A stretch of 63,158 nucleotides of DNA from Rhodoferax sp. (GTDB taxonomy: Bacteria; Pseudomonadota; Gammaproteobacteria; Burkholderiales; Burkholderiaceae_C), in the NCBI GenBank assembly GCA_026224975.1, contig JAMFRW010000348.1:1-63158 (forward strand). The letters are read 5' to 3'. Shown here piece by piece: positions 20,170 to 37,372 of the stretch. A program made the position numbers and the translations under genes. The notes beneath the pieces were generated by a model. The model worked only from the letters and a program-made list of their open reading frames with translations. It was not told the origin of the DNA and made no database searches. Every line of letters starts with the position of its first letter. The first letter of the stretch is position 1.

Positions 20170-20820
20170 TCATGGTTTCAACGACGCCAGCACCACCCGC
20201 GTCATCTCCTCCTGCCAGCTCGCGCATTGCTCGCGCTTCATCAGGTCGTCGCCCAGAAAGGTCGAGAGCGTGTAGCGGTTGGAGAGGTAGAAGTAGCCGA
20301 GCGCGGCCATCGTGAGGTAGACCTTCTTGACCTCCAGATCGGGCCGGAAGATGCCCTGCCGCATGCCCTCTTGCAGGATGCGGTCGAGGATGTCGAGCAC
20401 CGGCCGCGATAGCTGCTTGACCTTCACCGACTTGGTGATGTGCCGCCCGCGGTGCATGTTCTCGTTGGCCAGCAAGGCCACGAACTCCGGGTGCGCGAGG
20501 TAGTAGTTCCAGGTGAAGGCGATGAGCGTGCGGAGTGCCGCTTCGGGCTCGGAGACATCGAGCGTCAACGCCGATTCGGCCGCGCCGAGCTCGGTGTAGA
20601 CGCCTTCGAGCACCTCGATGTAGAGCGCTTCCTTGCTGCCAAAGTAGTAGTAGATCATCCGGTCGCTCGACTTGGCGGCCTTGGAGATGCGGTCGACCCG
20701 CCCGCCGCTGTAGCCGTGGCGCATGAACTCGGTGCGTGCGGCGCGCAGGATGCGTGCACGTGTGAGCGCGGCGTCTCGGGTTACGGGGGGCATGCACTGT
20801 TTGCAAACATCTGGCGCCAT
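20170..20820 (-). CDS. TetR family regulator (NicS/RutR-like), divergent from the nicotinate operon
   Basis: TRARILRAA..EF..G..G.RVD.I...RMIYYYFGSKE.LY; ENMHRG; start uncertain (20820 or 20793). Confidence 0.9.
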   Translation of the reverse strand: MAPDVCKQCMPPVTRDAALTRARILRAARTEFMRHGYSGGRVDRISKAAKSSDRMIYYYFGSKEALYIEVLEGVYTELGAAESALTLDVSEPEAALRTLIAFTWNYYLAHPEFVALLANENMHRGRHITKSVKVKQLSRPVLDILDRILQEGMRQGIFRPDLEVKKVYLTMAALGYFYLSNRYTLSTFLGDDLMKREQCASWQEEMTRVVLASLKP

Positions 20821-20973: not shown

Positions 20974-21843
20974 TTGGCCGCTGCCCGATTCGAACGCCCC
21001 GCCTCCATCGGCGAAGCCACCGCGTTGCTCGCGGCCGGTGGCTGGTCGGTGCTCGCCGGCGGGACCGATGTGTACCCGGCGCATGTGGGCAGGCCGATGA
21101 CGGCGCCGCTGATCGACATCACCGGCATCGCGGCGTTGCGTGGCATCACACCACGGCCCTCGGCCAACAGCGATGCAGTCGACGGCTGGACCTTCGGCGC
21201 CACGACCACCTGGGCCGATGTGCAGCGCGCCGATCTGCCGCAGCTCTTCGATGCACTGCGCCAAGCCGCGCGTGAAGTCGGCGGCGTGCAGATCCAGAAC
21301 ACCGGCACGCTGGCCGGCAACCTGTGCAACGCCTCGCCCGCGGCCGATGGCACGCCGGTGTGGCTGGCACTCGGTGCGCAGGTGCTGCTGCAGAGCGCTG
21401 GTGCCGAACGCCATGCACCGGTCGAAGACTTCGTGCTCGGCAGTCGGCGCACGGGGTTGGCGCCGAATGAGTTGGTGATCGGCCTGCAGGTGCCGAAGCG
21501 CAGCGCGCGGGCGCGCTCGGTCTTTCTCAAGCTCGGCGGGCGGCGTTACCTGACGATCTCGATGACCATGGTCGCCGTGATGATCGATGCGGACGAGGTG
21601 GGCACCATCACCGCGGCGGGCGTGGCGGTCGGCAGTTGCTCGGCGCGGGCGCTGCGGCTGCCGGCGTTGGAGTGCAGGTTGATCGGCTCCGCTTGGGCCG
21701 ATCTTGCCGATGTGGTGATCGACGCTGCCGATCTGGCGCCGTTGACGCCGATCGACGATCTGCGCGCGACCGCCGGCTATCGCCTGGATGCCACGGCGAC
21801 GCTGCTGCGCCGCGCGCTTGCGTCGCTGGAGCCTTTACCGTGA
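20974..21843 (+). CDS. ndhF: Molybdenum hydroxylase FAD subunit (nicotinate dehydrogenase NdhF-like)
   Basis: LAGGTD, QIQNTGTLAGNLCNASPAAD; TTG start after AAAGGA. Confidence 0.82.
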   Translation: MAAARFERPASIGEATALLAAGGWSVLAGGTDVYPAHVGRPMTAPLIDITGIAALRGITPRPSANSDAVDGWTFGATTTWADVQRADLPQLFDALRQAAREVGGVQIQNTGTLAGNLCNASPAADGTPVWLALGAQVLLQSAGAERHAPVEDFVLGSRRTGLAPNELVIGLQVPKRSARARSVFLKLGGRRYLTISMTMVAVMIDADEVGTITAAGVAVGSCSARALRLPALECRLIGSAWADLADVVIDAADLAPLTPIDDLRATAGYRLDATATLLRRALASLEPLP

Positions 21844-24818
21844 ACCAGCGCGACCCGAATCTGGCCGAGCCGGTCGCGAGCGCCGCCTGGCAACCTGTGC
21901 GCCTGCACATCAACGGCCAGGCGCACGAGATCGCCGGCCACCCCGCCGCGCGCCTGAGCGATGTGCTGCGCGACGACCTCTGCCTCACCGGCACCAAGAT
22001 CGGCTGCCACGCCGGCGATTGCGGCGCCTGCACCGTGCTGCTCGATGGCGAACAGGTCTGCGCCTGCATCGTCGCGCTCGGCCAATGCGAAGGCCGCGCG
22101 GTGACGACGGTCGAAGGGCTGGCCAGCGCCGACGGCGAACTCTCGCCGTTGCAGCAAGCCTTCGTCGCACATGGCGCGGCGCAGTGCGGCATCTGCACGC
22201 CGGGCATGCTGATGAGCGCCGAGTCGTTGCTGCGTGCCAACCCGCGGCCGAGCGAAGCGGAAGTGCTCGATGCCATCGGCGGCGTGCTGTGCCGCTGTAC
22301 AGGCTATCGCAAGATCGTCGAGGCGGTGCTGAGCGTGGCGTCGGGCGATGCGCCGGTGGGGGTGTCGATGGCCGACATCGCGCCGGCTGCAGGGCGGGCC
22401 GTCGGTGCGCGGCTGGCGCGGCTGGATGCGCCGGCCAAGGTGCGCGGCGAGGAACGGTTTGCGGCAGATGAATGGCCAGGTGAGAGGTCGTCGCGGCCAT
22501 CGGAAGCGTCGGCCGTTGAGCAGCAGGAGCCATCGATCGTCGGCATGCTCACGATGCGCGTCATCCGCTCGCCGCACGCCCATGCGCGCTTTACCCTCGG
22601 TGACATGGCCGCCTTCGTCGCAAGCCATCCCGGCATCGTCGACGTGATCACCGCCGCCGATGTGCCGCACAACGCCTTCGCGATCTTCGCCGAGTTGCGC
22701 GATCAGCCGGTGCTCGCCGATGGCCTGGTGCGCTTCGCGGGCGAAGCGGTCGTCGCGCTGGTGGGCGAGGCCGAGGCGGTGTTCGCCGTGCCCGAGGCCG
22801 AGGTGCCGATCGCCTACCAGGTGCTGCCGGCCTTCGGTGACATGCCCGGCGCGCTGCAGGCCGCATCGCAAGGCGTGCTGCTGCAAGCCGCCTTCCCCGA
22901 CAACGTGCTGTGCCGTGGCCGCGTCGTGCGCGGTGATGTCGATGCCGCGTTCGATGAAACATCGCGCGCCCGATCACACAGCGCCGAATGCCGCTTCGAC
23001 ACCGCCTACGTCGAGCACGCTTACATCGAGCCCGAAGCCGGCTACGCGCAGTGGCTGGAGAGCGATGGCGCCGCGCCGCGCATCCGCATCTTCGCCTGCA
23101 CGCAAACGCCCTACATGGACCGCGACGAAATTGCGCATGTGATGGGCCTCGAGCGCGAGCAGGTGCACATCGTGCCGTCGGCGATCGGCGGTGGCTTCGG
23201 CGGCAAGCTCGATCTCTCGGTGCAGCCGCTGCTGGCCGTCGCCGCGCGCAAGACACGCCGCGCCGTGCGGCTGGTTTACGAACGGCCGGAGTCGATGCGC
23301 TCCAGCACCAAGCGTCACCCTTCCGACATGCGGGCGCGCGCTGCCTGCGATGCTTCTGGCCGCCTCTCGGCGTACGACTTCGAAGGCGACTTCAACACGG
23401 GGGCCTATTCGTCCTGGGGCCCGACGGTGGCCAACCGCGTGCCCATCCACGCGAGCGGCCCGTACCGCATTCCCAACGTGCGGGCGACCACACGCGCCGT
23501 GCTCACTCACAACAGCGTGGCCGGCGCCTTCCGCGGCTTCGGCGTGCCGCAGTCCACGCTGATCAACGAACGCCTGCTCGATGAATTGGCGGCACAGTGC
23601 GGCATGGATGCACTCGAGTTCCGCCACCTCAACGCGCTGCGTGCCGGCGACACCACGCCGACCGGGCAAGTGCTCGCCGCAAGCGTCGGGCTGCAGGAAT
23701 GCCTGGATGCATTGCGGCCCGCGTGGCGCCGCGCCAAGGCCGACGCGGCGGCGTTCAACGCGAACACGAGTGAAGGCTACTTGCGCCGTGGCGCCGGCAT
23801 CGCCTGCATGTGGTACGGCATCGGCAACACGGTGATCGCCAACCCCTCGGCCATGCGCGGCAGCCTGCGGCTGAGCGCGGAACGAGGCGCGCACCTCTTC
23901 CTCTACAACGGCGCGCAGGAGATCGGCCAGGGCACGGCGACCGTCATGCCGCAGATGTTTGCCGATGCGGTCGGGCTGCCGGTGGGCTGCGTCGAACAGG
24001 TGATGGGTGACACCGATTTGACGCTCGATGCCGGCAAGTCCTCGGCCTCGCGGCAGACCTTCGTCTCGGGCAACGCGGCGCGCTTTGCGGGGCAGGATTT
24101 GCGGCGGCAGATGCTGGCGGCGTTGGGTGTCGAGGCGGAACAGCGATCGCCGGGCGACGCTTCCGAATCGGCTTCCTCGACCGGCGCGACATCGACCAAG
24201 CCAAGCATCACCGCCCCCATCGACTTGAGCCTCGAAGGCCCGCACCTCATCGCCGGCAACCGCCGCATCGACTTGCGCGACCTGCCGCGCGATGCGAACG
24301 GCGATGTCTTCACTGGTCTAGGCCACTTCAACCCGCCCACCGTGCCGCTCGATGCCGACGGCCAGGGCGTGCCCTATGCGACCTTCGGCTTTGCCGCGCA
24401 GATCGCAGAACTCGAAGTCGACATCGACCTCGGCACCGTGAAGCTGCTGCGCATCCACGCCGCGCACGACGTGGGCCGCGCCATCAACCCGACACAGGTC
24501 GAGGGCCAGATCCACGGCGGCATCGCGCAGGGCATTGGCCTGGCGCTGATGGAAGAGTACGTGAACGGCCGCACCGACAACCTGCACGACTACCTGATCC
24601 CGACGGCAGGCGACGTGCCGCCCATCACCGTGCACCTGATCGAAGACCCCGAGCCGCTGGGGCCGTGGGGCGCCAAGGGCGTGGGCGAACCGGCGCTCGT
24701 CGCCACCGCGCCCGCCATCCTGAACGCGATCTTCGACGCCGTCGGCGTGCGCATGGGCCGCGTTCCGGTCACGCCGAGCCGGCTGCGTGCGGCCATGCTG
24801 AAGCGGGGTGCGCGATGA
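21840..24818 (+). CDS. Fused 2x[2Fe-2S] plus molybdopterin subunit (nicotinate dehydrogenase NdhSLM-like)
   Basis: GTKIGCHAGDCGAC, QCGICTPG, LCRCTGY; GGGFGGK, AFRGFG, GAKGVGEP; GTGA overlap; adjacent to hnr. Confidence 0.88.
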   Translation: MNQRDPNLAEPVASAAWQPVRLHINGQAHEIAGHPAARLSDVLRDDLCLTGTKIGCHAGDCGACTVLLDGEQVCACIVALGQCEGRAVTTVEGLASADGELSPLQQAFVAHGAAQCGICTPGMLMSAESLLRANPRPSEAEVLDAIGGVLCRCTGYRKIVEAVLSVASGDAPVGVSMADIAPAAGRAVGARLARLDAPAKVRGEERFAADEWPGERSSRPSEASAVEQQEPSIVGMLTMRVIRSPHAHARFTLGDMAAFVASHPGIVDVITAADVPHNAFAIFAELRDQPVLADGLVRFAGEAVVALVGEAEAVFAVPEAEVPIAYQVLPAFGDMPGALQAASQGVLLQAAFPDNVLCRGRVVRGDVDAAFDETSRARSHSAECRFDTAYVEHAYIEPEAGYAQWLESDGAAPRIRIFACTQTPYMDRDEIAHVMGLEREQVHIVPSAIGGGFGGKLDLSVQPLLAVAARKTRRAVRLVYERPESMRSSTKRHPSDMRARAACDASGRLSAYDFEGDFNTGAYSSWGPTVANRVPIHASGPYRIPNVRATTRAVLTHNSVAGAFRGFGVPQSTLINERLLDELAAQCGMDALEFRHLNALRAGDTTPTGQVLAASVGLQECLDALRPAWRRAKADAAAFNANTSEGYLRRGAGIACMWYGIGNTVIANPSAMRGSLRLSAERGAHLFLYNGAQEIGQGTATVMPQMFADAVGLPVGCVEQVMGDTDLTLDAGKSSASRQTFVSGNAARFAGQDLRRQMLAALGVEAEQRSPGDASESASSTGATSTKPSITAPIDLSLEGPHLIAGNRRIDLRDLPRDANGDVFTGLGHFNPPTVPLDADGQGVPYATFGFAAQIAELEVDIDLGTVKLLRIHAAHDVGRAINPTQVEGQIHGGIAQGIGLALMEEYVNGRTDNLHDYLIPTAGDVPPITVHLIEDPEPLGPWGAKGVGEPALVATAPAILNAIFDAVGVRMGRVPVTPSRLRAAMLKRGAR

Positions 24819-26371
24819 ACCCCGACATGCGTTCGGATGGTCAGGCCTTCTCGGATCCGACCTCACAACAGGCCACGCAACCCATCATCCTCGACCATTC
24901 CCGCGCCCCCGAGCGCATGGCCGCCGACAAGGTGCGCTGCGAAGCCTGCCCGGTGCTGTGCCAGATCAGCCCCGGCAAGCTCGGCGCCTGCGATCGGTAT
25001 GGCAACGTCGACGGCGAACTCGCGCGGCTGGACCAGCTTCACCTCGTGCGTCAGCCCGGCACGCTCCTTGTCGAATGGCCAGCCGCCAAGGAAGGATGGG
25101 ACGGCAGCCTGATCCCGGCCACGGCCGATTCGCCGCCGGTTTTCGTCTCCGGCCTCGGCGCCGGCACCACCTACCCCGACTACAAACCCGCGCCCTTCAT
25201 CATCGCCTCGAAGCATGAAGGCGTGGACATGGTGACGGTGGTCACCGAAGGCATCTTCAGCGACTGCAGCTTCAAGGTGAAGGTCAACACCGACCGCTAC
25301 CTCGGCCCCGAACAGGCCACGGTGCGGCACCAGGGCGAAGCCGTCGGCCATGTGACGACGATCGAATACGGTTCGCAGTTCCTGGCGCTCGGCGGCGTGC
25401 ACCACCTCACCGGCGGCAGCAAGCGCGAAGGCCGCGTCGCGTGCGACATGATGATGGCGCTCGGCAACCAGCGGCCAGTGGAGCTCACCATCGAAGGCGG
25501 TGCCACGCTGACGGTGCAGGCCGGCAAGCCGCCCATCGTCAACGGCGTGGAAGAGCAGCGCATGCGTGTCGGTTGCGGCTCGGCGACCATCGGCATCTTT
25601 GCGCAGCAGTGGTTCGGGCTGGCCGATGAAGTGGTGGTGATCGACGACCACATCACCGGCGTGCTGAGCGAACACCAGGCCGGCAAGTGCCTGGACATGC
25701 CGGCCTCGGGCATCCGCCTGCGCGGCCGCAAATCGACGCCCGGCCGCTACTTCCAGGTCGCCAACCCGGGCGCCGGCTGGGGCGGCACCGACATCACCGA
25801 CCCGCTCGCCATCATCGAGACCTGGGACGCGAAGCACGCCCGCCCCGGCATGCGCCTGCTGATGGTCTCGACGACCGGCGAAGACTCCGCCTGGTTCGTG
25901 CTCGACGACGCGCTCGTGCCGCAGCCGGCCGAGATGCCGCCAGCCGTGCGCCGGGTGGTGGAGCGCATCGGCGAGAACTGCGAGCCTTCGCTCACGACCG
26001 TGCTCTACGTGGCCGGTGCCGGCGGCTCGCTGCGCGCCGGCGTCACCGACAACCCGGTGCGCCTGACGAAGGCGATCAAGGACATGCTGGTCAACGTGAC
26101 CTGCGGCGGCGCGCCGGTCTATGTGTGGCCGGGCGGCGGCATCACGGTGATGGTGGACGTGAGCCGCATGCCGGCCGGAAGCTTCGGTTCGGTGCCCACG
26201 CCGGCCATCGTCTCGCCGATCGAATTCACGCTGCGGCTGGACGACTACCGCGCACTCGGCGGCCACATGGGCGCGGTGCGGCGCATCGAGGAGGTGTTGG
26301 CCAGCGGCGCCTATCGCCTGATCGATGCCAGCGCCGCCAACCCGTGGCCTTTGCTTCTTCCAAAGCCATGA
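24815..26371 (+). CDS. hnr: 6-hydroxynicotinate reductase (Fe-S flavoprotein)
   Basis: CEACPVLC...GACDRY, GTTYPDYKPAPFI, MRVGCGSA, YVWPGGGI. Confidence 0.88.
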   Translation: MNPDMRSDGQAFSDPTSQQATQPIILDHSRAPERMAADKVRCEACPVLCQISPGKLGACDRYGNVDGELARLDQLHLVRQPGTLLVEWPAAKEGWDGSLIPATADSPPVFVSGLGAGTTYPDYKPAPFIIASKHEGVDMVTVVTEGIFSDCSFKVKVNTDRYLGPEQATVRHQGEAVGHVTTIEYGSQFLALGGVHHLTGGSKREGRVACDMMMALGNQRPVELTIEGGATLTVQAGKPPIVNGVEEQRMRVGCGSATIGIFAQQWFGLADEVVVIDDHITGVLSEHQAGKCLDMPASGIRLRGRKSTPGRYFQVANPGAGWGGTDITDPLAIIETWDAKHARPGMRLLMVSTTGEDSAWFVLDDALVPQPAEMPPAVRRVVERIGENCEPSLTTVLYVAGAGGSLRAGVTDNPVRLTKAIKDMLVNVTCGGAPVYVWPGGGITVMVDVSRMPAGSFGSVPTPAIVSPIEFTLRLDDYRALGGHMGAVRRIEEVLASGAYRLIDASAANPWPLLLPKP

Positions 26372-27282
26372 CCGAGATACCCGGCGCGGCGCAATGCGGT
26401 CGCCTGTCGGACGGCCGTTGGTTCTTCCAGCATGGCCCGATCGATTGCGTGATCGGCGCCGAGGGCGAACAGCGTGCCGTGGCGCACGCGGTCGATGCCG
26501 CGTGGCGGCGCTTCGGTGGGCTGCTCGATGAACTGGTGGCCGAGTTGCCGCTGCTGCGCGCCGACCTCAGCGCGCCCGAGGCGCACCTGATCGCACCCAA
26601 CGGCCCGGTCGCCTGCCGCATGGTCGCTGCCTGCCGCGCGCACGCGCTCTCCGGCCGCTTCATCACCGCGATGGCTTCGGTGGCCGGCAGCGTGGCGCAG
26701 GAGCTGATCGGCTTCTTCGATCGGCCCGGCATCCAGCGTGCGCATGTGAACAACGGCGGCGACATCGCCTTGCACCTCACGCCCGGCACCTGGTTCGACA
26801 TCGGTCTCGTCACCGACCCCGATTCGCGCAGCGGGCTCGACGGCCGTTTCCGCATCCATGCCGAATCGCTCATCCGCGGCGTGGCGACCTCGGGCTGGCG
26901 CGGCCGAAGCCTCTCGCTCGGCATCGCCGACAGCGTGACCGTGCTCGCCGCCACCGCTGCGCAGGCCGATGCTGCGGCCACCGTGATCGCCAACGCCGTG
27001 AACGTGGACGATGCCCGCGTGCAGCGCGCGCCGGCAAACCGCATACGCGATGACAGCGATCTTGGCGATCGGCTCGCGACCTGCGCGGTCGCCACCTTGC
27101 CGGCGGAACTGGTGGCGCAGGCGCTGGCCGCAGGCACCGTCCAAGCCGATCACGAGATCGCCGCAGGTCATGTGCTGGCCGCGGCCCTGTGCCTGCAAGG
27201 GCGGGTGCGGTTGTGCGGCGCGGTGCTGGCCTTGGCGCCGCCCGAGGCCAGCACCCCCCTTCCCACGGCGCGATCCTCGTAA
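26368..27282 (+). CDS. UPF0280/ApbE-superfamily protein (putative flavin transferase)
   Basis: QHGPID, MA.VAG, VNNGGDIA, ATSGWRGRSLSLGIADSVTV. Confidence 0.85.
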   Translation: MTEIPGAAQCGRLSDGRWFFQHGPIDCVIGAEGEQRAVAHAVDAAWRRFGGLLDELVAELPLLRADLSAPEAHLIAPNGPVACRMVAACRAHALSGRFITAMASVAGSVAQELIGFFDRPGIQRAHVNNGGDIALHLTPGTWFDIGLVTDPDSRSGLDGRFRIHAESLIRGVATSGWRGRSLSLGIADSVTVLAATAAQADAAATVIANAVNVDDARVQRAPANRIRDDSDLGDRLATCAVATLPAELVAQALAAGTVQADHEIAAGHVLAAALCLQGRVRLCGAVLALAPPEASTPLPTARSS

Positions 27283-27318
27283 ACCGGCCCCTGCCGCACT
27301 GACTTTCACGGAGCCACC

Positions 27319-27924
27319 ATGCTGTATTCCCCCCAAGACAAGCTCCCCGGCGTCGACGTGCGCAAGCTCGTGCTCGGCGTCGAAGACGTGTGGCGCGATG
27401 GCGGGCCGCGCGCGGCGCAGCCCTTGCAGCGCGGCAGCATCGCGGCGCTCGTGCGCAACCCGTATGCCGGGCGCTATGTGGAAGACATCCAGCCGATGAT
27501 GGAGGCGCTCAAGCCGCTGGGCCGCGAGATGGCATTGCGCCTGGTCACCGCGCTCGGCGGGCCGGGCCGCATCGAAGGCTACGGCAAGGGCGCGATGATC
27601 GGCCTGGCGGGTGAGCTGGAGCACGGCGCGCTGTGGCATGTGCCCGGCGGCTACGGCATGCGCGACCTGCTCGAAGGCTCGCACGCCATCGTGCCTTCCA
27701 CCACCAAGGTCGGCGCGGCCGGCGCCAGCATCGACATCCCCATCCACCACCGCGTGGCCGCTTATGTGCGCAGCCATTTCGATTCGGTCGAGGTGCGCGT
27801 GCCCGATGGCCCGCAACCCGACGAGATGCTGCTGGTGATCGCGATGACCACCGGGCCGCGGCTGCATGCGCGCGTCGGCGGGCTGGCGGCGAGCGAGATC
27901 AGCAAGCTCGACGGGCAGCGGTGA
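27319..27924 (+). CDS. DUF1185 ('amino acid synthesis') family protein
   Basis: NPYAGRY, YGKGA.IG..GELEHGA, YVRSHFD, HARVGG. Confidence 0.85.
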   Translation: MLYSPQDKLPGVDVRKLVLGVEDVWRDGGPRAAQPLQRGSIAALVRNPYAGRYVEDIQPMMEALKPLGREMALRLVTALGGPGRIEGYGKGAMIGLAGELEHGALWHVPGGYGMRDLLEGSHAIVPSTTKVGAAGASIDIPIHHRVAAYVRSHFDSVEVRVPDGPQPDEMLLVIAMTTGPRLHARVGGLAASEISKLDGQR

Positions 27925-28601
27925 TGGTGATGAAGCCCGATGCCCACAGCGCGCTCATCGTCGTCGATGTGCAGAACGGCTTTTGCAACGGCGGTGGCCT
28001 CGCCGTGGCAGATGGCGAAGCCGTCGTGCCGGTCATCAACGCATTGGCTGCAGCCTTCGACAACGTGGTGCTGACGCAAGACTGGCACCCGGCCGGCCAC
28101 CTGTCGTTTGCGTCTTCGCATGCCGGCAAGCAGCCCTTCGAGACCACCACGCTGGCCTATGGCGAACAGGTGCTCTGGCCCGACCACTGCGTGCAGGGCA
28201 CGCAAGACGCCGCGCTGCACCCGGACCTCGCCATCCCGCACGCCCAGCTCATCATCCGCAAGGGCTACCACCGCGAGATCGACAGCTACTCCGCCTTCAT
28301 GGAAGCCGATGGCCAAACGCCGACGGGCCTCACCGGCTACCTGCAACTGCGCGGCATCACCGGCGTTTACGTGTGCGGCCTGGCGACCGACTTCTGCGTG
28401 GCCTACACCGCGCTCGATGCGCGCGCCGCGGGCTTCGAGGTCACCGTGATCGAAGACGCCTGCCGCGCCATCGACATGAACGGCTCGCTCGCCGCAGCCT
28501 GGCAGCAGATGGTGGCAGCCGGTGTCGGCCGCATGTGGTCTGTGGACATAACCACTTCCGCTGACCATCTTGCTCAGGCTGACCAACCCCGCTCAGGCTG
28601 A
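27924..28601 (+). CDS. pncA: Nicotinamidase/pyrazinamidase
   Basis: VVDVQNGF, TQDWHP, WPDHCVQG, RKG..DSYSAF, GLATDFCV. Confidence 0.95.
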   Translation: MVMKPDAHSALIVVDVQNGFCNGGGLAVADGEAVVPVINALAAAFDNVVLTQDWHPAGHLSFASSHAGKQPFETTTLAYGEQVLWPDHCVQGTQDAALHPDLAIPHAQLIIRKGYHREIDSYSAFMEADGQTPTGLTGYLQLRGITGVYVCGLATDFCVAYTALDARAAGFEVTVIEDACRAIDMNGSLAAAWQQMVAAGVGRMWSVDITTSADHLAQADQPRSG

Positions 28602-28615
28602 GCCTGTCGAAGCCC
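28589..28615 (+). repeat. REP-like unit (GCTGAGCCTGTCGAAG family)
   Basis: CCGCTCAGGCTGAGCCTGTCGAAGCCC matches 50610-50636 at 26/27 nt; contains the pncA stop codon. Confidence 0.8.
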
Positions 28616-28650
28616 CGAACCGATCCACTGTTTCACCCCGGAGATCCTTC

Positions 28651-29844
28651 ATGCTCATCAAACCCCTGGCCATCGCCGCCCTCGTCCTGCTCGGCGCTTC
28701 GACAGCGCACGCGCAAGACACCATCAAGATCGGCGAGATCAACAGCTACAAGGGCCAGCCGGCCTTTCTGGAGCCGTACAAGAAGGGCTGGGAGCTGGCG
28801 GTCGAAGAAGTCAACGCGTCAGGCGGTGTGCTCGGCAAGAAGATCCAGGTCGTCTCGCGTGACGACAACGGCACGCCGGGCGATGCGGTGCGCGTGGCCG
28901 AAGAGCTGGTCTCGCGCGAAAACGTGGCGGTGATCGCGGGCACGTTTCTCTCGAACACCGGCCTCGCTGTGACCGACTTCGCCAAGCAGCGCAAGGTGTT
29001 CTTCCTGGCCGCCGAGCCGCTCACCGACAAGATCACCTGGCAGAACGGCAACCGCTACACCTTCCGCCTGCGGCCCAACACCTACATGCAGTCGGCCATG
29101 CTGGTGCCCGAGGCCGCCAAGCTGAAGAAGAAGCGCTGGGCGCTGGTCTACCCCAACTACGAATACGGCCAGTCGGCCGCGGCCACCTTCAAGCTGATGC
29201 TGAAGAAGTTGCAGCCCGATGTGGAGTTCGTGGCCGAGCAGGCCTCGCCGCTCGGCCGAATCGATGCCGGCGCGGTGACGCAGGCACTCGCCGATGCCAA
29301 GCCGGATGCGATCTTCAACGTGCTCTTCGGCGCCGACCTGGCCAAGTTCGTGCGTGAGGGCACGACGCGCGGGCTCTTCAAGGGCCGCGAGGTGGTGAGC
29401 CTCTTGACCGGCGAACCCGAATACATCGAGCCGCTGAAAGAGGAAGCGCCGGTCGGCTGGATCGTCACCGGCTACCCGTACTACGGCATCCAGACCGATG
29501 AACACAAGAAGTTCTTCCTGGCCTATTTCCGCAAGTACAACGAGTATCCCAAGCTCGGCTCGGTGGTCGGCTATTCGACCATCCTGTCACTCGCCGAAGG
29601 CATGAAAAAGGCCAAGTCCGTCGAGACCGAAAAACTCATCGCCGCCTTCGAAGGCCTCACGCTGATGACGCCGCTGGGCAAGGTCAGCTACCGCAAGATC
29701 GATCACCAGTCGACCATGGGCGCCTACCTGGGCAAGACCAAGCTGGAAGGCAACAAGGGTGTGATGACGGACAATGTTTATCTGGACGGCGCGAAGTATT
29801 TACCGGGTGATGACGAGGTGAAGAAGCTGCGCGCGCCGGATTGA
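28651..29844 (+). CDS. HAAT/Liv-type ABC substrate-binding protein (probably nicotinate/nicotinamide)
   Basis: Signal peptide AHA|QD; IKIGEINSY; VNASGGVLGKKI. Confidence 0.9.
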   Translation: MLIKPLAIAALVLLGASTAHAQDTIKIGEINSYKGQPAFLEPYKKGWELAVEEVNASGGVLGKKIQVVSRDDNGTPGDAVRVAEELVSRENVAVIAGTFLSNTGLAVTDFAKQRKVFFLAAEPLTDKITWQNGNRYTFRLRPNTYMQSAMLVPEAAKLKKKRWALVYPNYEYGQSAAATFKLMLKKLQPDVEFVAEQASPLGRIDAGAVTQALADAKPDAIFNVLFGADLAKFVREGTTRGLFKGREVVSLLTGEPEYIEPLKEEAPVGWIVTGYPYYGIQTDEHKKFFLAYFRKYNEYPKLGSVVGYSTILSLAEGMKKAKSVETEKLIAAFEGLTLMTPLGKVSYRKIDHQSTMGAYLGKTKLEGNKGVMTDNVYLDGAKYLPGDDEVKKLRAPD

Positions 29845-31730
29845 CGGTGACCTTCTCCTCCGCCGTGCTGCAAATCCTCACCGGCCTCGCGTCGGCGTCG
29901 GCGCTGTTCCTGGTCGGCAGCGGGCTCTCGCTGATCTTCGGGGTGACGCGCATCGTCAACTTCGCGCACGGTTCGTTCTACATGCTGGGGCTGTATGCGG
30001 CGGTGTCGTTGGTCAATGCGTTCGGCGGAAGCTCGCTGGGCTATTGGGGTGGCATCCTCGTTGCGGCGCTGCTCGTGGCCGTGCTCGGCGCGGTCATCGA
30101 GATGCTGGTGCTGCGCCGCCTCTACGCCGCGCCCGAGCTGTACCAGCTGCTCGCCACCTTCGCGCTGGTGCTGGTCATCCGCGATGCCGCGCTGTGGGCC
30201 TGGGGGCCAGAAGACCTGCTCGGCCCCAAGGCGCCGGGCATGAAGGGCGCGCTCGATGTGCTGGACAAGCCCTTTCCCAGCTACGACCTTTTCTCCATCT
30301 TCGTCGGCCCCGTGGTGCTGGGCCTGTTGTGGCTGCTGCTCACGCGCACGCGCTGGGGCCTGCTGGTGCGCGCGGCCACGCAAGACCGCGAGATGGTCGG
30401 CGCGCTCGGCGTCAATCAGCAGTGGCTCTTCACCTCGGTCTTTGCGCTCGGCACCTTCCTGGCGGCGCTCGGTGGCGCCTTGCAGATGCCGCACGAGCCG
30501 GCCAACCTCAACCTCGACCTGGCGCTGATCGGCGAGGCCTTCGTGGTCGTCGTGGTGGGTGGCATGGGTTCGGTGTTCGGCGCGTTCGTGGCGGCCATTC
30601 TGATCGCGATGGTCAAGGCCTTTTGCATCGGCGCAGGCTCGATCGATGTCTTCGGCACGCCCTTCCCCTTGAGCAAGCTCACGCTGGTCGCCGAATTCGT
30701 GGTGATGGCGCTGGTGCTGGTCTGGCGGCCGTGGGGCCTGTTCGGCAAGCCGCAAGGCGTGGTGCGCGGCGGCAGCGAGATCGATCAACCGCTGCGCCCC
30801 TTGCCGCTGATGTGGAAGCGCATCGGCCTGGTCGCGCTCGCGCTGCTGTTGCTCGTGCCTCTGCTGCAGTCGTCGGCGCCTTACGTGGTCGTGCTGATGA
30901 TCGACCTGCTCATCGCCGTGCTCTTCGCGGCCAGCCTGCACTTCGTCATGGGCCCGGCCGGCATGCATTCGTTCGGGCACGCGGCGTACTTCGGGCTGGG
31001 TGCTTATGGTGCGGCGCTGTGCCTCGTCGGCCTGAAGCTGCCGATGGAGCTGGCGCTCATCGCCGCGCCCTTGCTCGCGGCCTTGGGCGCGCTGCTCTTC
31101 GGCTGGTTCTGCGTGCGGCTTTCGGGCGTGTACCTCGCGATGCTGACGCTGGCGTTCGCGCAAATCGTCTGGTCCATCATCTACCAGTGGGACACGGTCA
31201 CCGGCGGCAGCAACGGCCTGGTCGGCATCTGGCCGGCGGGCTGGCTCTCGTCGAAGCCGGCCTACTACTACGTGACGCTGCTGTTCGTCGTGGCCGGTTG
31301 CGGCCTGCTCGCGCGCACGCTGCATGCGCCGCTGGGGCTGGCGCTGCGGGCGGGGCGCGATTCACCGGTGCGGGCCAACGCGATCGGCATCGACCTGCCC
31401 CGCCTGCAGTGGGTCGCCTTCGTGATCGCGGGCACCTTGGCCGGCTTGGCGGGCTCGCTCTTCGCCTTCGCTAAGGGCACGATTTCGCCCGAGACGCTGG
31501 CGGTCGGCAAGTCGGTCGATGGCCTGGTGATGGTCTTGCTCGGCGGCGTGCAAACCCTCTCCGGCCCGTGGGTCGGCGCGGCGCTGTTCACCTGGTTGCA
31601 AGACACCATCGCACGGCAAACCGACTACTGGCGCGCGTTGCTCGGCGTCATCATGCTGGCGCTGGTGCTGGTGTTTCCGCTGGGCATCGCAGGTGGCTTG
31701 CGGCGCATGTTCCTGAAGGAGCCGGCATGA
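29841..31730 (+). CDS. Fused LivH-LivM ABC permease
   Basis: GLSLIFG..IVNFAHG; second half SFGHAAYFG, TGGSNG. Confidence 0.92.
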   Translation: MTVTFSSAVLQILTGLASASALFLVGSGLSLIFGVTRIVNFAHGSFYMLGLYAAVSLVNAFGGSSLGYWGGILVAALLVAVLGAVIEMLVLRRLYAAPELYQLLATFALVLVIRDAALWAWGPEDLLGPKAPGMKGALDVLDKPFPSYDLFSIFVGPVVLGLLWLLLTRTRWGLLVRAATQDREMVGALGVNQQWLFTSVFALGTFLAALGGALQMPHEPANLNLDLALIGEAFVVVVVGGMGSVFGAFVAAILIAMVKAFCIGAGSIDVFGTPFPLSKLTLVAEFVVMALVLVWRPWGLFGKPQGVVRGGSEIDQPLRPLPLMWKRIGLVALALLLLVPLLQSSAPYVVVLMIDLLIAVLFAASLHFVMGPAGMHSFGHAAYFGLGAYGAALCLVGLKLPMELALIAAPLLAALGALLFGWFCVRLSGVYLAMLTLAFAQIVWSIIYQWDTVTGGSNGLVGIWPAGWLSSKPAYYYVTLLFVVAGCGLLARTLHAPLGLALRAGRDSPVRANAIGIDLPRLQWVAFVIAGTLAGLAGSLFAFAKGTISPETLAVGKSVDGLVMVLLGGVQTLSGPWVGAALFTWLQDTIARQTDYWRALLGVIMLALVLVFPLGIAGGLRRMFLKEPA

Positions 31731-31786
31731 GCCGCCGGGCCGCTCCCAAGGCGAATTCCGCAGTGCGAAGCACGGAGGCGTCCTGA
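31727..31786 (+). other. 60-nt junction element encoding 19-aa mini-ORF MSRRAAPKANSAVRSTEAS
   Basis: ATG overlaps the permease stop (ATGA); its TGA overlaps the next ATG (TGATG); internal GGAGG SD. Confidence 0.65.
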
Positions 31787-32565
31787 TGACCCTGCCCTTG
31801 TTGGAGGTGCGCGGCTTGAGCAAAGCCTTCGGCGGTTTGCGGGCCGTGAGCGGCGTGAGCTTCGATCTCGCAGCGGGCGAGATGCTCGCGATGATCGGGC
31901 CGAATGGTGCCGGCAAGTCGACCTGCTTCAACATGGTCAACGGCCAGTTGGCGCCGGATGCGGGCTCGGTGAAACTGGCCGGCACCGAACTCGTCGGCCA
32001 GAGGCCCAAGGCCATCTGGCGGCTCGGCGTGGGGCGCACCTTCCAGATCGCCGAAACCTTTGCCTCGCTCACGGTGCTCGAGAACGTGCAGCTCGCGCTG
32101 CTCTCGCATGCGCACCGCGTGTTCCGCTTCTGGCGCCCTGCGCGGGAGCAGTTTCGCGACGAAGCCTTGGCGCTGCTGGCCAACGTCGGCATGGCGCCGC
32201 AGGCCGAGCGCGCGATGAGCGTGCTGGCGTATGGCGACGTCAAACGGGTGGAGCTGGCGATCGCGCTGGCCAACCAACCGCGCCTCTTGCTGATGGACGA
32301 ACCCACTGCCGGCATGGCCCCGCGCGAGCGCAACGAGCTGATGGCGCTGACGCGGCGGCTCGCCATCGAGCAGCAGATCGGCGTGCTCTTCACCGAGCAC
32401 AGCATGGACGTGGTGTTTGCGCATGCCGACCGCATGATCGTGCTGGCGCGCGGCGAGCTGATCGCCAGCGGCGCGCCGGCCGAAGTGCGTGACGACCCGA
32501 AGGTGCGGCAGGTCTACTTCGGCATGGGCACGACCTTCGAGAACGCGGAGCCGGCCCATGCTTGA
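31786..32565 (+). CDS. ABC ATPase (LivG-like)
   Basis: GPNGAGKS, LLMDEPTAG, TEHSMD. Confidence 0.95.
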   Translation: MTLPLLEVRGLSKAFGGLRAVSGVSFDLAAGEMLAMIGPNGAGKSTCFNMVNGQLAPDAGSVKLAGTELVGQRPKAIWRLGVGRTFQIAETFASLTVLENVQLALLSHAHRVFRFWRPAREQFRDEALALLANVGMAPQAERAMSVLAYGDVKRVELAIALANQPRLLLMDEPTAGMAPRERNELMALTRRLAIEQQIGVLFTEHSMDVVFAHADRMIVLARGELIASGAPAEVRDDPKVRQVYFGMGTTFENAEPAHA

Positions 32566-33271
32566 AGTGCGGCAACTCAACGCCTGGTACGGCAAGGCAC
32601 AGATCCTCTACGACGTGTCGTTCGACGTTCGGCCCGGTGAATGCGTGGCGCTGATGGGCCGCAACGGCGCGGGCAAATCGACCACGATGAAAGCGCTGAT
32701 GGGCGTGCTCGCCAAGCGCTCGGGGCAGGTGACGTTTCGTGCGGCCGATGTGGCGCACGACATCTCGAACCTCGCGCCCTACCGCATCAACCGCCTGGGC
32801 CTGGGCTGGGTGCCGGAAGACCGGCGCGTGTTCACCGACCTGACCGTGCTGGAGAACCTCGCCGTGGCGCGACAGCCGCCGCGAAAGGGCGCGCCGACCT
32901 GGTCGCACGCGCAGCTCTTCGAACTCTTCCCCAACCTCGGCGCCATGCCCGACCGGCCCGGCGGCCGCATGAGTGGAGGTGAGCAGCAGATGCTCACCAT
33001 CGCGCGCACGCTGATGGGCAACCCGTACCTGATCCTGCTCGATGAGCCTTCGGAGGGCGTCGCGCCGGTGATCGTCGAGCAGATGGCGCAGATGATCCTG
33101 ACGCTCAAGCGCCAGGGCTTGTCCATCCTGCTGAGCGAGCAGAACCTGCACTTCGCGCGCCTCGTTTCCGACCGCGCCGTGGTTCTGGAAAAAGGCCAGG
33201 TGCAGTTCGACGATTCGATGGCCGCGCTGACGCGCGACGAGGCCATTCAACGCAATTACCTGAGCGTCTAG
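32558..33271 (+). CDS. ABC ATPase (LivF-like)
   Basis: GRNGAGKS, MSGGEQQML, LLDEPSEG. Confidence 0.95.
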   Translation: MLEVRQLNAWYGKAQILYDVSFDVRPGECVALMGRNGAGKSTTMKALMGVLAKRSGQVTFRAADVAHDISNLAPYRINRLGLGWVPEDRRVFTDLTVLENLAVARQPPRKGAPTWSHAQLFELFPNLGAMPDRPGGRMSGGEQQMLTIARTLMGNPYLILLDEPSEGVAPVIVEQMAQMILTLKRQGLSILLSEQNLHFARLVSDRAVVLEKGQVQFDDSMAALTRDEAIQRNYLSV

Positions 33272-33297
33272 ACGATGCCAACCATGGGTCTTTCGAC

Positions 33298-35349
33298 ATG
33301 AGCCGAATCGCAGGCATCGATGTGGGCGGGACCTTCACCGACCTGATCCTGGTCGACGATGCGACCGGCGAGGTCAGCCTGGCCAAGGTGCCGACCACTG
33401 TGCACAACCAGGCCTTCGGCGTGCTCGCGGCGCTCGACGCGGCGGGTGCCGACCCGGCCTCGCTCGATGCCATCGTGCATGGCACGACGACCACGACCAA
33501 CGCGATGCTGGAGCGCAAGATCGCGCGCGTCGGGCTCATCACCACGCGTGGCTTTCGCGATGTACTGGAACTCGGCCGCCGCACGCGGCCCACGCCCTAC
33601 GGCCTCAAGGGCCAGTTCGTGCCGCTGATCCCCCGCGAGCTGCGGCTGGAAGTCGATGAACGCATGGATGCCGATGGCGAGGTGCTGCGACCGCTGGACG
33701 AAGCGCAAGTCGAGGCCGCTGTGGTGCAACTGCTGGCCGCCGGCGCCGAAAGCGTCGTCATCCACTTTCTGCACAGCTACATCAACGCCTCGCACGAAGC
33801 GCGTGCTGCCGAGATCGTGCGCTCGCTCTGGCCCAACCCGCATGTGACGGCAGGCCACACGGTGGTCGCCGAATACCGCGAGTACGAGCGTGGCACCACC
33901 GCCGCGGTGAACGCCGCGATCCAGCCCGTGCTGCACCGCTACATCGCGCGGCTGCAAGGCGAGCTGGCCGGCCGCGGCTTCACGCGCGAGCTGCTGGTGA
34001 TGCAGGGCAACGGCGGCACGGTGGCCGCCTCACTCGTGGCGGAGCATGCGGTGAACACGGTGATGTCCGGGCCTGCCTCGGGCGTGATCGCGGCGGCCGC
34101 CACGGCCATGCAGGCGGGCTCGTTCCCAGGCGAGTTCGCCAACGTCGTTACCTACGACATGGGGGGCACGTCGAGCGATGTGGCGCTGGTGCTCAATGGT
34201 CTGCCCAGCGTCTCGAGCGATCTCGAACTCGAATACGCGATGCCCATTCACGTGCCCATGGTCGATGTGCACACCATCGGCGCCGGTGGCGGCTCGCTGG
34301 CGAGCGTGGATGCGGGCGGCATGTTGCGCGTCGGCCCCGAGAGCGCGGGCGCCACGCCCGGGCCGATCTGCTACGGCAGGGGCGGCACGCGGCCGACCAT
34401 CACCGATGCCAACCTGGTGCTCGGCCGGCTCGACCCCGACCGCCTGCTCGCGGTCGACAGCCCCGTCTCGGTCGAGACCTTGTGTGCCGCGTTGCGCGAG
34501 CACGTGGGCCACAAGCTGGGGCTCGATGCCGAAGCCTCTGCCGCGGCGATCCTGCGCGTGGCCAACGACAAGATGGCCGGCGCGGTGCGCATGGTCAGCC
34601 TCTCGCGCGGCCACGACCCGCGCGACTTCGCCCTGTTCGCCTTCGGTGGTGCCGGGCCCTTGCATGCGGTGGCACTGGCGCGCGAACTCGGCATCCCGAA
34701 GGTCTTGATCCCCGCGCGGCCGGGCTTGACGAATGCGCTCGGCTGCGTGGTGGCCGACCTGCGCCACGACTTCGTGCGAACCGTGAATCGCCCGCTCTCG
34801 TCGCTGGATGAAGGCGTGATCGCCGCCTTGTTCGAAGCGCAGATCACTGCCGGCCGCGAACTGCTGGCGCGCGAGCCGGTGGCGGTGGAAGCGGTGGTCA
34901 CCGTGCACCGCGCCGACATGCAGTTCCAGGGCCAGAGCCACATCCTGCCGGTCGCCATCGACAACATGAACATCACCGTCGCCGAGCTGCGCGCGGTGTT
35001 CGAGGCCGCCTACTGGCAGCGCTTCGGCGTGGAGCTGCCCGAGATCCTGCCGGTGCTGGTGAACCTCCACACCGCCGTGATCGGCAAGCGACGCGCGGTC
35101 TCGCTCGCGTCCATCATGGCGGCCAAACCCGCGGCATCGTTGGACGAAGCCCGACGGCTGATTCGCCCGGTGTGGTTCGATGGCGGATGGATGGATACGC
35201 CGGTGTATGTGCGCGAGCGGCTGCCGTTGGGTACTTCGTTCACCGGGCCGGCGATCGTGGAACAGTTCGATGGGACGACGGTGGTGGAGCCGGGCAACCA
35301 TGTCACGATGGATTCGATCGGCAACTTGATCATTGGCGTGGGAACATGA
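33298..35349 (+). CDS. Hydantoinase A / 5-oxoprolinase ATP-binding subunit
   Basis: GIDVGGTFTD, HGTT, SGPASG, DMGGTS, IGAGGGS, FGGAGPLH. Confidence 0.95.
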   Translation: MSRIAGIDVGGTFTDLILVDDATGEVSLAKVPTTVHNQAFGVLAALDAAGADPASLDAIVHGTTTTTNAMLERKIARVGLITTRGFRDVLELGRRTRPTPYGLKGQFVPLIPRELRLEVDERMDADGEVLRPLDEAQVEAAVVQLLAAGAESVVIHFLHSYINASHEARAAEIVRSLWPNPHVTAGHTVVAEYREYERGTTAAVNAAIQPVLHRYIARLQGELAGRGFTRELLVMQGNGGTVAASLVAEHAVNTVMSGPASGVIAAAATAMQAGSFPGEFANVVTYDMGGTSSDVALVLNGLPSVSSDLELEYAMPIHVPMVDVHTIGAGGGSLASVDAGGMLRVGPESAGATPGPICYGRGGTRPTITDANLVLGRLDPDRLLAVDSPVSVETLCAALREHVGHKLGLDAEASAAAILRVANDKMAGAVRMVSLSRGHDPRDFALFAFGGAGPLHAVALARELGIPKVLIPARPGLTNALGCVVADLRHDFVRTVNRPLSSLDEGVIAALFEAQITAGRELLAREPVAVEAVVTVHRADMQFQGQSHILPVAIDNMNITVAELRAVFEAAYWQRFGVELPEILPVLVNLHTAVIGKRRAVSLASIMAAKPAASLDEARRLIRPVWFDGGWMDTPVYVRERLPLGTSFTGPAIVEQFDGTTVVEPGNHVTMDSIGNLIIGVGT

Positions 35350-35395
35350 GGCCCCTCCTGAGCGCTGAGCGTGGCCAAGCCCGCCGGGTGGTCCC

Positions 35396-35607
35396 CTCCG
35401 CGAATGTCCTCCGGCCGGGCTTCGCCCAACCTCCCCCTTTATTTCGCTGCGGGAACCACCCGACGGCCTCGGCCGGGGGACCTCGGAGGTACGCCTCCAA
35501 CCACTGCCCGGCTCGCTGCGATGGTTCCGAGATCGGTTCGGCTGGGCATGCTGCGCAGCGAAATCAAGGGGGAGGTGGCCGAAGGCCGCCGGAGGACATT
35601 CGCGGAG
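35396..35607. repeat. MITE/REPIN-like element with about 55-bp imperfect inverted repeats
   Basis: CTCCGCGAATGTCCTCCGGC...CCTCCCCCTTTATTTCGCTGCG (35396-35451) and reverse-complement copy CGCAGCGAAATCAAGGGGGAGG...GCCGGAGGACATTCGCGGAG (35554-35607). Confidence 0.85.
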
Positions 35608-35668
35608 CAGCGTGCCCTGGCGGACCGATCAGCGCGCCGACACCAGCGGATCATCAGGAGCCACAAAC

Positions 35669-37372
35669 ATGACCATCGACCCCATCACCCTCGGCGTCCT
35701 GCAAAACGGCCTCCAGCAAGTCTGCAACGAGATGGACCTGGCCTTCGTGCGAAGCGCCTTCAGTCCGGTGATCGCCGAGGCGCTCGACCGCTCCGACGGC
35801 ATCTATCACCGGTCCACCGGCGCGCTCATTGCCCAGGGCGAGCTGGGCCTGCCGGTGTTCGTCGGCACCATGCAGTTCACCGTGCAAGCCGTGATCGAAC
35901 ACATCGCCAGACACAAGGTCACGCTGCACGAAGGCGATGTGTTCATCGTCAACGATCCGTACCTCGGCGGCACGCACTTGATGGACGTGAAGTTTGTGCA
36001 GCCCTTCTTCCACGAAGGTGCGCTCTGGTGCTGGCTCGCCAACACAGGCCACTGGCCCGACACCGGCGGCATGGTGCCGGGCGGCTTCTCGGCCAACGCG
36101 ACCGAGGTGGAGCAGGAAGGCCTGCGCCTGCCGCCGGTCAAGCTCTACAAGCGCGGGCAGATCGACCAGGAGATTCTCTCGATCATCCTTTCCAACATCC
36201 GCATCGCCGACCAGCGCATCGGCGACATCAAGGCGCAGGCGGCAGCGCTCACGACGGGCGACAAGCGGCTCTCGGCGCTGCTCGCACGCTACGGCGCGGC
36301 AACCGTCGAAGCGGGCATCATTGAACTCGAAGCCCGCGCCGCGCAGCAGATGCGTGCCTGCATCGCGGCCATTCCCGATGGCAGCTACGAGGGCGAAGCG
36401 TTCGTCGATTCCGACGGCGTGGTCAACGAGCCGCTGCGCATCGCGATGAAGATCACCAAGCGCGGCGGCACCGACGACGCCACCTTGAGCTTCGACATGA
36501 CCGGCTCGTCGCCCCCGTGCAAGGGCCCGATGAACAGCGTGATTGCCACCACCAAGTCATCGATCTACCTGGCCGTGAAGCATGTGTTCCCCGATGTGGC
36601 GATCAACGCCGGCACCTTCATGCCGCTGCAGATCACCGAGCCCGAAGGCACGTTCCTTTACGCGCGCTATCCGCGGCCGGTCTCTGGCTGCGCGGCAGAG
36701 GTGAGCCAGCGCATCGCCGAGGCGGTGTTCGCGGCGCTCGGCAAGGCCATCCCCGACCAGCTCTTCGGCGCGCCGGCCGGCACCAGCGGCAACCTCGGCG
36801 TGGGCGGCTTCGACCCGCAAAAGAACCGCGCCTACGTGATGTACGTGATCTCCGGCGGCGGCTACGGCGGCAGCCCGGCGGGCGACGGCATCTCCAACGG
36901 CTGCTCCACCATCGGCATCTCCAAGACCACGCCGATCGAGATCATGGAGCAGCTCTACCCGGTGCTCTTCGAGGAGTACTCGCTGCACGAAGGCTCCGGC
37001 GGCGCCGGCGAACACCGCGGCGGCTTCGGCGTCAACTACCGCATCCGCCTGCGCCGCGGCGAAGCCACCGTCTCCATGGTGATGGACCACGGCCGTGCCG
37101 GCCCACCCGGCGTACAGGGCGGCGGCGCGGGCGGAGTCAACACGGTCGAGATCATCCGCAACGGCCAGACGTATGTGCCGGCGCATCTGTCGAAGGACCA
37201 GGACATCCGCATCACGGCCGACGATGTGATCAGCGTCTCCACGCCCGGCGGTGGCGGCTTCGGGCCGCCTTCGGCACGTGATGCCGACGCAGTAAAGCAC
37301 GATGTGGCGCTGGGGTATTACACGGCGGAGGAATCGCGAAGGTTGTTCGAGGCGTCGGTTCCCCTGGCGTGA
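35669..37372 (+). CDS. Hydantoinase B / 5-oxoprolinase catalytic subunit
   Basis: IDPITL, RSAFSPVI, NDPYLGGTHL.D, HW.D.GG..PG, GSGGAG..RGG, TPGGGGFG; AGGAG SD. Confidence 0.95.
   Translation: MTIDPITLGVLQNGLQQVCNEMDLAFVRSAFSPVIAEALDRSDGIYHRSTGALIAQGELGLPVFVGTMQFTVQAVIEHIARHKVTLHEGDVFIVNDPYLGGTHLMDVKFVQPFFHEGALWCWLANTGHWPDTGGMVPGGFSANATEVEQEGLRLPPVKLYKRGQIDQEILSIILSNIRIADQRIGDIKAQAAALTTGDKRLSALLARYGAATVEAGIIELEARAAQQMRACIAAIPDGSYEGEAFVDSDGVVNEPLRIAMKITKRGGTDDATLSFDMTGSSPPCKGPMNSVIATTKSSIYLAVKHVFPDVAINAGTFMPLQITEPEGTFLYARYPRPVSGCAAEVSQRIAEAVFAALGKAIPDQLFGAPAGTSGNLGVGGFDPQKNRAYVMYVISGGGYGGSPAGDGISNGCSTIGISKTTPIEIMEQLYPVLFEEYSLHEGSGGAGEHRGGFGVNYRIRLRRGEATVSMVMDHGRAGPPGVQGGGAGGVNTVEIIRNGQTYVPAHLSKDQDIRITADDVISVSTPGGGGFGPPSARDADAVKHDVALGYYTAEESRRLFEASVPLA

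Follow-up and report, generated by a model that had tools for sequence, protein, structure and literature searches.

Introduction

Bacterial breakdown of nicotinate through 1,4,5,6-tetrahydro-6-oxonicotinate (THON), a six-membered lactam that is opened by enamidase, has already been described (PMC9304392, PMC3511419). Here, we analyze a stretch of 63,158 nucleotides from Rhodoferax sp. (assembly GCA_026224975.1, contig JAMFRW010000348.1), referred to as the window, which carries an operon with the early genes of this route, including the 6-hydroxynicotinate reductase gene hnr, and with the hydantoinase-family genes hyuA and hyuB instead of an enamidase gene. Judging from gene content and distribution, the operon probably serves the breakdown of nicotinamide and nicotinate by hydroxylation followed by reduction, with HyuAB opening THON at the expense of ATP. 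A previous reading of this DNA, made from the sequence alone, had suggested such an ATP-dependent opening and had regarded it as an undescribed branch of pyridine-ring catabolism.

Results

HyuAB and enamidase were never found together as orthologues in the hnr genomes that we sampled evenly. We examined 80 hnr loci close to the window's Hnr by seeded tblastn, counting hyuA and hyuB as orthologues at 57% identity or more. The enamidase seed was an amidohydrolase from a related hnr locus whose only PDB match was to enamidase (2VUN, 1.5e-112). Twenty-two loci had hyuA/hyuB, 24 had enamidase, none had both, and 34 had neither, many of them on short contigs. Whole-genome typing of 50 genomes from these 80 loci, weighted towards HyuAB and undecided loci, yielded 36 with HyuB only, 11 with enamidase only (two at 54% and 44%), two with neither, and one whose HyuB is accompanied, on a different contig, by an enamidase-like gene at 40%. 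The unpublished genome G017 contributes to both counts, with a locus among the 22 and a genome among the 36.

Three even samples extend this pattern. Among 300 genomes of the window's own family, hnr is present in 43: enamidase alone accompanies it in 39 and HyuB alone in four. No HyuB orthologue was found in the 257 hnr-negative genomes. These four HyuB genomes overlap with the 50 chosen above and form one lineage together with the window. The HyuAB type is the majority in the other two samples: in 401 genomes of Alphaproteobacteria (the class of G018), 66 have hnr, 40 with HyuB (63-77%) and 26 with enamidase (67-82%), and in 61 genomes of SAR324 (the phylum of G011), 14 have hnr, 11 with HyuB, one with enamidase and two with neither. 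Pooled, the 123 hnr genomes comprise 55 with HyuB, 66 with enamidase, none with both and two with neither. Within the order of G018, hnr is present in 21 of 23 genomes; enamidase is absent from all 17 tested for it, 13 of which lay outside the HyuB typing, and HyuB is present in all three further genomes tested.

The ring opener has been exchanged repeatedly. On a tree of 125 Hnr proteins, the ring-opener state requires 14 changes, seven of which are forced by branches with support of 95 or more. A comparison of independent pairs, based on 111 rows with both traits typed per genome and the two “neither” rows kept, gave nine pairs that differ in HyuB; enamidase was opposite to HyuB in seven of them and never changed in the same way (p about 0.016). 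Mutual exclusivity among Hnr genomes had been put forward as a test in the sequence-only reading, and both the absence of genomes with the two ring openers and the repeated switches bear it out. The HyuB orthologues cluster together with a support of 91; next to them is a 57-58% sister group, and the outgroup branches are long. hyuAB stays with the cluster across rearrangements, lying after the ABC (ATP-binding cassette) transporter genes, before ndhF, directly after the UPF0280 gene, or convergent, and in the plasmid locus of Sagittula stellata E-37 (ABFK29_RS21905/RS21910) it overlaps ndhSLM. No alignment column of Hnr, Ndh or the substrate-binding protein separates the two types (best values 0.80, 0.82 and 0.86), so the upstream substrate looks the same in both.

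The window's own genome lacks a recognizable enamidase: in this 87% complete assembly of 615 contigs, the main seed had no match at E<1e-8, and two more distant enamidase-like seeds had none at 1e-5. Because of this incompleteness and fragmentation, the absence by itself is no proof. None of the 20 genome-wide matches to the amidohydrolase family PF01979 is on the operon's contig and no monooxygenase is among the 12 operon genes; that the operon has neither kind of gene had been noted previously. The operon likewise has neither gene of the aerobic NicC/NicX maleamate route, that is, 6-hydroxynicotinate 3-monooxygenase or 2,5-dihydroxypyridine dioxygenase. By name, NicC is not among the nine PF01494 proteins of the genome, only one of which was compared with PDB, where it proved to be a 3-hydroxybenzoate 6-monooxygenase; NicX was not searched.

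In sequence and predicted fold, HyuA and HyuB are members of the ATP-dependent lactamase family. In PDB, HyuA ranks N-methylhydantoinase (475 bits) and the caprolactamase subunit CapA (387 bits) above carboxylases (316 and 220 bits), and HyuB ranks CapB (247 bits) and N-methylhydantoinase (222 bits) above carboxylases (112 and 66 bits). The A-subunit motifs DxGGTxTD, DxGGT and GxxPGP, as given in PMC8453981, are present in HyuA, where D8, G10-D15, K30, G289-S292 and D294 are invariant in 76-80 alignment rows and D287 and GAxPGP are in the alignment's conservation line. The metal site of HyuB (D40, H103, D106 and H128) is invariant in 77-79 rows. These four residues and HyuA D8 and D287 are retained positions that were mutated in caprolactamase (PMC8453981). 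A predicted HyuB model with a predicted local distance difference test score of 81 superimposes on 6YRA_B and 9H03 with TM-scores of 0.84-0.86 (0.86 for 6YRA_B). The pair falls outside the NCBIfam caprolactamase models NF050156 and NF050157, scoring 501 and 303 bits against a cut-off of 1000. A carboxylase role was considered and rejected, since the scores with the acetophenone/acetone carboxylase (Apc) models (318 and 115 bits) are far below their cut-off of 1500 and lactamases score higher.

A second protein is usually exchanged along with the ring opener. DUF1185 proteins of type B occur in 26/26 enamidase genomes compared to 3/40 HyuB genomes, and in 42/47 enamidase-type compared to 1/70 HyuAB-type loci. 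S. stellata and Neorhizobium are among the exceptions that have type B with HyuAB, and type B accompanies distant enamidase-like genes too. Since type B follows enamidase, the exchange in most cases involves enamidase together with DUF1185-B. Type A, to which the window's protein belongs, is present in 41/70 HyuAB-type and 22/47 enamidase-type loci. The earlier suggestion that the window's DUF1185 possibly handles the enamine product of the lactamase is not supported, as type A accompanies either ring opener and is missing from 29/70 HyuAB-type loci; an obligatory partnership with HyuAB was rejected on the same grounds. According to PMC2954203, the family has a chorismate-mutase-like fold and no known activity, and a homologue, TgnF, is reported second-hand in PMC7913881 to stimulate aldehyde oxidation in trigonelline catabolism.

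The operon consists of 12 intact genes in the same direction, running from a TTG start to the stop of hyuB (Table 1), with the content and placement that the sequence-only reading had listed. From ndhF to hyuA, the junctions measure -4, -4, -4, 36, 5, 49, 2, 55, -8 and 26 bp, the last being the distance already given between the final ABC ATPase and hyuA. The tight coupling that had been described does not extend to hyuB, because hyuA and hyuB are separated by 319 bp filled by a dispersed palindromic repeat, which recurs on five other contigs. In all, the operon contains three different dispersed repeats between its genes (28572-28615, 31731-31785 and 35369-35641), on 18, 18 and 6 contigs respectively, counting its own. 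In a close relative (L111:181-10001), about 9.8 kb of unrelated genes of sensor kinase, solute symporter and exonuclease families stand between hyuA and hyuB; in L093 and L094, the same families are placed after hyuB. Promoter and terminator scans of the operon gave results at chance level only.

Table 1. Features of the operon and its flanks in the window
Feature	Position	Strand	Evidence
pncB, nicotinate phosphoribosyltransferase, flanking salvage gene	18964..20151	+	NCBIfam TIGR01514 above cut-off
TetR regulator (TetR_N + TetR_C_29), divergent	20170..20793	-	domain scan
ndhF-like flavin adenine dinucleotide subunit, molybdenum hydroxylase, TTG start	20974..21843	+	PF00941/PF03450
fused ndhS-L-M (2Fe-2S + molybdopterin), likely nicotinate dehydrogenase	21840..24818	+	domain scan
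hnr, 6-hydroxynicotinate reductase orthologue	24815..26371	+	57-66% identity to annotated plasmid proteins
UPF0280 protein	26368..27282	+	NF003322 above cut-off
DUF1185/AA_synth, type A	27319..27924	+	PF06684
pncA, nicotinamidase	27930..28601	+	NF008623, 199 bits (cut-off 174)
ABC transporter substrate-binding protein	28651..29844	+	PF13458
fused Liv-type permease	29847..31730	+	PF02653, two stretches
ABC ATPase, LivG-like	31786..32565	+	family scans
ABC ATPase, LivF-like	32558..33271	+	family scans
hyuA, ATP-binding subunit of ATP-dependent lactamase family, 683 amino acids, intact	33298..35349	+	PF05378/PF01968/PF19278; PDB 7HK5, 6YRA
palindromic repeat, dispersed, between hyuA and hyuB; arms 35396-35451 and 35554-35607	35369..35641	.	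blastn, one long hairpin
hyuB, metal-binding hydrolytic subunit, 567 amino acids, intact	35669..37372	+	PF02538

The salvage gene pncB adjoins the cluster in 4/80 related hnr loci as well. The divergent TetR protein is likely the repressor of the operon, and orthologues of it are found next to many hnr clusters of Betaproteobacteria, whether of the HyuAB or the enamidase type. Convergent with hyuB, at 37404-38074 on the minus strand, are a PIN-domain toxin and an Arc/ribbon-helix-helix partner, a probable toxin-antitoxin pair.

The upstream enzymes are assigned partly by context. The fused molybdenum subunit matches E. barkeri NdhL (3HRD, 2.6e-64), and aldehyde oxidoreductases score higher; nicotinate as its substrate is therefore deduced from the presence of hnr, pncA and pncB. 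A molybdenum hydroxylase of the xanthine dehydrogenase family adjoins hnr, as in Hnr-type clusters, a feature of the sequence that does not by itself single out nicotinate. Hnr has no Pfam or NCBIfam model, and both its name and its orthology derive from plasmid homologues annotated as 6-hydroxynicotinate reductase, not from the E. barkeri protein itself.

UPF0280 is a constant partner of hnr, present in 116/117 typed hnr loci, with a weak PDB match to 2O34. The target motif of ApbE resembles S/T-G-A-T, and Hnr contains a nearly invariant GCGSA stretch. UPF0280, which we take to be ApbE-like, may be the flavin transferase of Hnr, which presumably has a covalent flavin; in one literature search, no listed entry contained the word hydroxynicotinate. 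Genes for ferredoxin-NADP reductase, ferredoxin or 2-oxoacid:ferredoxin oxidoreductase recur beside hnr clusters of both types (L009, L200, L209, L241 and others) and probably supply electrons to Hnr. A Rieske oxygenase is found within 18/47 enamidase-type compared to 3/70 HyuAB-type loci (for example L042:12438-13481, L173, L213 and L241:2600-3670); it is a candidate N-demethylase that could feed trigonelline into the pathway. PncA was rejected as a ring opener, being present in only 18/70 HyuAB-type loci and also in 5/47 enamidase-type loci.

Discussion

We propose the following pathway. After uptake by the ABC transporter, PncA would convert nicotinamide to nicotinate, the molybdenum hydroxylase nicotinate to 6-hydroxynicotinate, and Hnr 6-hydroxynicotinate to THON. 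HyuA would then activate the lactam with ATP, probably together with bicarbonate as in caprolactamase, and the metal site of HyuB would hydrolyze the activated lactam to an enamine diacid, from which loss of ammonia could lead through 2-formylglutarate and glutarate to glutaryl-CoA. In two loci, hnr and hyuAB have genes for glutaryl-CoA dehydrogenase and a succinate-glutarate CoA-transferase-like protein beside them, which agrees with the glutarate route given for A. caulinodans (PMC3511419), and the window's own genome has homologues of the two at 68% and 50%. Pseudomonas putida OplAB, a bicarbonate-requiring enzyme, acts preferentially on six-membered lactams and accepts a methyl group at position 5 (PMC11033972), which bears on THON because the same ring position carries its carboxylate. 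The earlier proposal that an ATP-dependent lactamase opens THON is strongly supported by the mutual exclusivity with enamidase and by the repeated switches. Gene content, catalytic residues, fold and exclusive distribution are established, and from them we infer every reaction, this one included.

Several points weigh against this conclusion. ATP is not a strict requirement for opening THON, since enamidase does so without it; ATP may be spent to make ring opening irreversible when substrate is low. The window's own genome is only 87% complete, the large searches were limited to the 2-5 best candidates of each genome, and all trees were built with FastTree. The HyuB genomes G016, G412, G517 and G812 carry 36-43% enamidase-like genes elsewhere. 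In the three of these that belong to the even samples (G412, G517 and G812), the genes lie away from hnr, and activity on THON is possible. Counting G016, G412 and G517 as enamidase genomes lowers the opposed independent pairs to 5-6 of nine (p about 0.06). HyuB at 58-70% is also present in 7/335 hnr-negative alphaproteobacterial genomes. Three of the seven (G378, G628 and G725) belong to the sister clade, and an assembly break is plausible in G582, since its DUF1185 and UPF0280 genes sit at a contig end. The remaining three (G497, G621 and G719) are related to one another and nest inside the HyuB clade at 68-70% identity, and neither hnr nor ndh was found in them. The hyuAB pair also occurs, together with DUF1185-A, on a Sinorhizobium medicae plasmid, and no plasmid of this organism has hnr (the chromosome was outside the search). 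Together with G497, G621 and G719, this plasmid indicates that the HyuAB clade can exist without Hnr.

Some of these loci are of interest in themselves. Away from hnr, L231, L233 and L234 combine distant enamidase-like genes (39-43%) with DUF1185-B-like genes and a flavin monooxygenase gene of the HpaB type, which would form a separate pathway. In three hnr-negative genomes (L225, L227 and L229), clade hyuAB follows a molybdenum aldehyde-dehydrogenase-like gene, with MarR, pyridoxal phosphate-dependent decarboxylase and beta-keto acid cleavage enzyme genes nearby, possibly as a different catabolic pathway. The S. medicae locus (pSMED01, L243:9923-22497) combines hyuAB and DUF1185-A with MarR, an isochorismatase-family gene and an ABC transporter. 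It includes two open reading frames that we take to encode nucleoside hydrolases, judging by their motif, and is perhaps related to nicotinamide riboside.

One alternative interpretation is that HyuAB opens saturated 6-oxopiperidine-3-carboxylate, formed by a second reduction, to 2-(aminomethyl)glutarate, which would then be transaminated. Such a pathway would count as a genuinely new branch, and it would account for the requirement for ATP. Opening of a saturated lactam gives an amino acid that needs an aminotransferase, whereas opening of THON gives an enamine able to shed ammonia. A class-III aminotransferase gene is found in one of the 84 clade loci that have at least 2 kb of downstream sequence, compared to 3/3 sister-clade loci, in two of which it directly follows hyuB. 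The scarcity of such neighbors in the clade itself fits an enamide substrate such as THON, and the sister-clade pairs (57-60%; L224, L228 and L230) are candidates for saturated-lactam pathways. Neighbor families of the HyuAB-type clusters include no conserved second reductase or aminotransferase (the seeded search covered class III only), and Hnr has no type-specific column. Although ATP is thermodynamically needed for saturated lactams, with caprolactam at +23 kJ/mol (PMC8453981), we regard this alternative as unlikely.

Alternatively, HyuAB-type clusters could act on another pyridine, such as a nicotinate bearing an N-methyl or other substituent, with a reduced lactam that enamidase cannot open. 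The best structural match of HyuA is N-methylhydantoinase, and the three hnr-negative genomes that keep clade members beside another molybdenum enzyme are in line with this idea. However, the operon includes a nicotinamidase gene and is flanked by pncB, the two types are mixed together in their Ndh, Hnr and binding proteins, and no genome has both types, as two substrates might allow; we consider another substrate quite unlikely. Very unlikely is that hyuAB is a passenger, acting for example on 5-oxoproline or hydantoins while an unrecognized enzyme or a distant enamidase-like gene opens THON: the repeat-filled gap before hyuB, the location of hyuAB far from hnr in several genomes and the four HyuB genomes with distant enamidase-like genes would agree with it, but a passenger would not be expected to follow the loss of enamidase over at least seven switches or to be missing from all 257 hnr-negative genomes sampled in the family, and two further hyuAB pairs in the window's own genome are distant (30-36%).

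If HyuAB does open THON, the textbook enamidase step is a minority solution in two large groups, and pathway predictions that require enamidase would miss HyuAB-type genomes. It would also provide a natural substrate for a large uncharacterized family (6609 clusters at E<=1e-200, with generic names among those shown) and extend the known range of ATP-dependent lactamases, enzymes of biocatalytic interest, to an enamide-lactam. We speculate further, and quite tentatively, that in Alphaproteobacteria and SAR324 reductive vitamin B3 breakdown mostly takes the form of ATP-coupled THON opening, where HyuAB would replace a two-protein module of enamidase and DUF1185-B. The reason would be that ATP gives irreversibility at trace substrate, whereas enamidase would need the pull of DUF1185-B through enamine hydrolysis or decarboxylation. 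This would supply a first substrate for thousands of “hydantoinases” and a first activity for a DUF1185 subfamily. A cultured HyuAB-type strain, S. stellata E-37, exists.

We found no description of the exchange of enamidase for HyuAB in the searchable literature; Alhapel 2006 and Kitts 1992 were beyond that search, and the cluster figure of Alhapel could already show such genes. What had been suggested to be an undescribed branch is better described as the displacement of one step in a known pathway, and a common one. This variant is likely to be new and is widespread, accounting for nearly half of the surveyed hnr genomes.

HyuAB resembles several characterized or proposed ring openers. It shares with CapAB (PDB 6YRA) and OplAB the two subunits, ATP motifs, Asp-His-Asp-His metal site and fold (TM-score 0.86), but is only about 30% identical and has no aminotransferase partner, and several hydrophobic positions in the CapB pocket align with Ser/Thr in the window's HyuB in an alignment read by eye. 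N-methylhydantoinase (PDB 7HK5/9H03) is the best sequence match of HyuA and the best fold match of HyuB; unlike the window's pair, it is a single chain of 1288 amino acids, with 27% identity in the B part and a hydantoin substrate. A precedent is IaaCE of the anaerobic indoleacetate pathway of Aromatoleum aromaticum, a proposed ATP-dependent, hydantoinase-like opener of an N-heterocycle encoded in a catabolic cluster (PMC8453981). By the description given there, it acts on 2-oxoindoleacetate, in a pathway without ring reduction; the likeness to HyuAB is one of description only. The closest overall counterpart is the THON cluster of E. barkeri, A. caulinodans and Bradyrhizobiaceae, which, as far as it is presented in PMC3511419 and PMC9304392, has in common with the window a molybdenum hydroxylase, Hnr, an ABC transporter and conserved proteins of unknown function. 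In contrast to that cluster, the window has neither enamidase nor DUF1185-B and instead carries HyuA and HyuB, with a nicotinamidase inside the operon.

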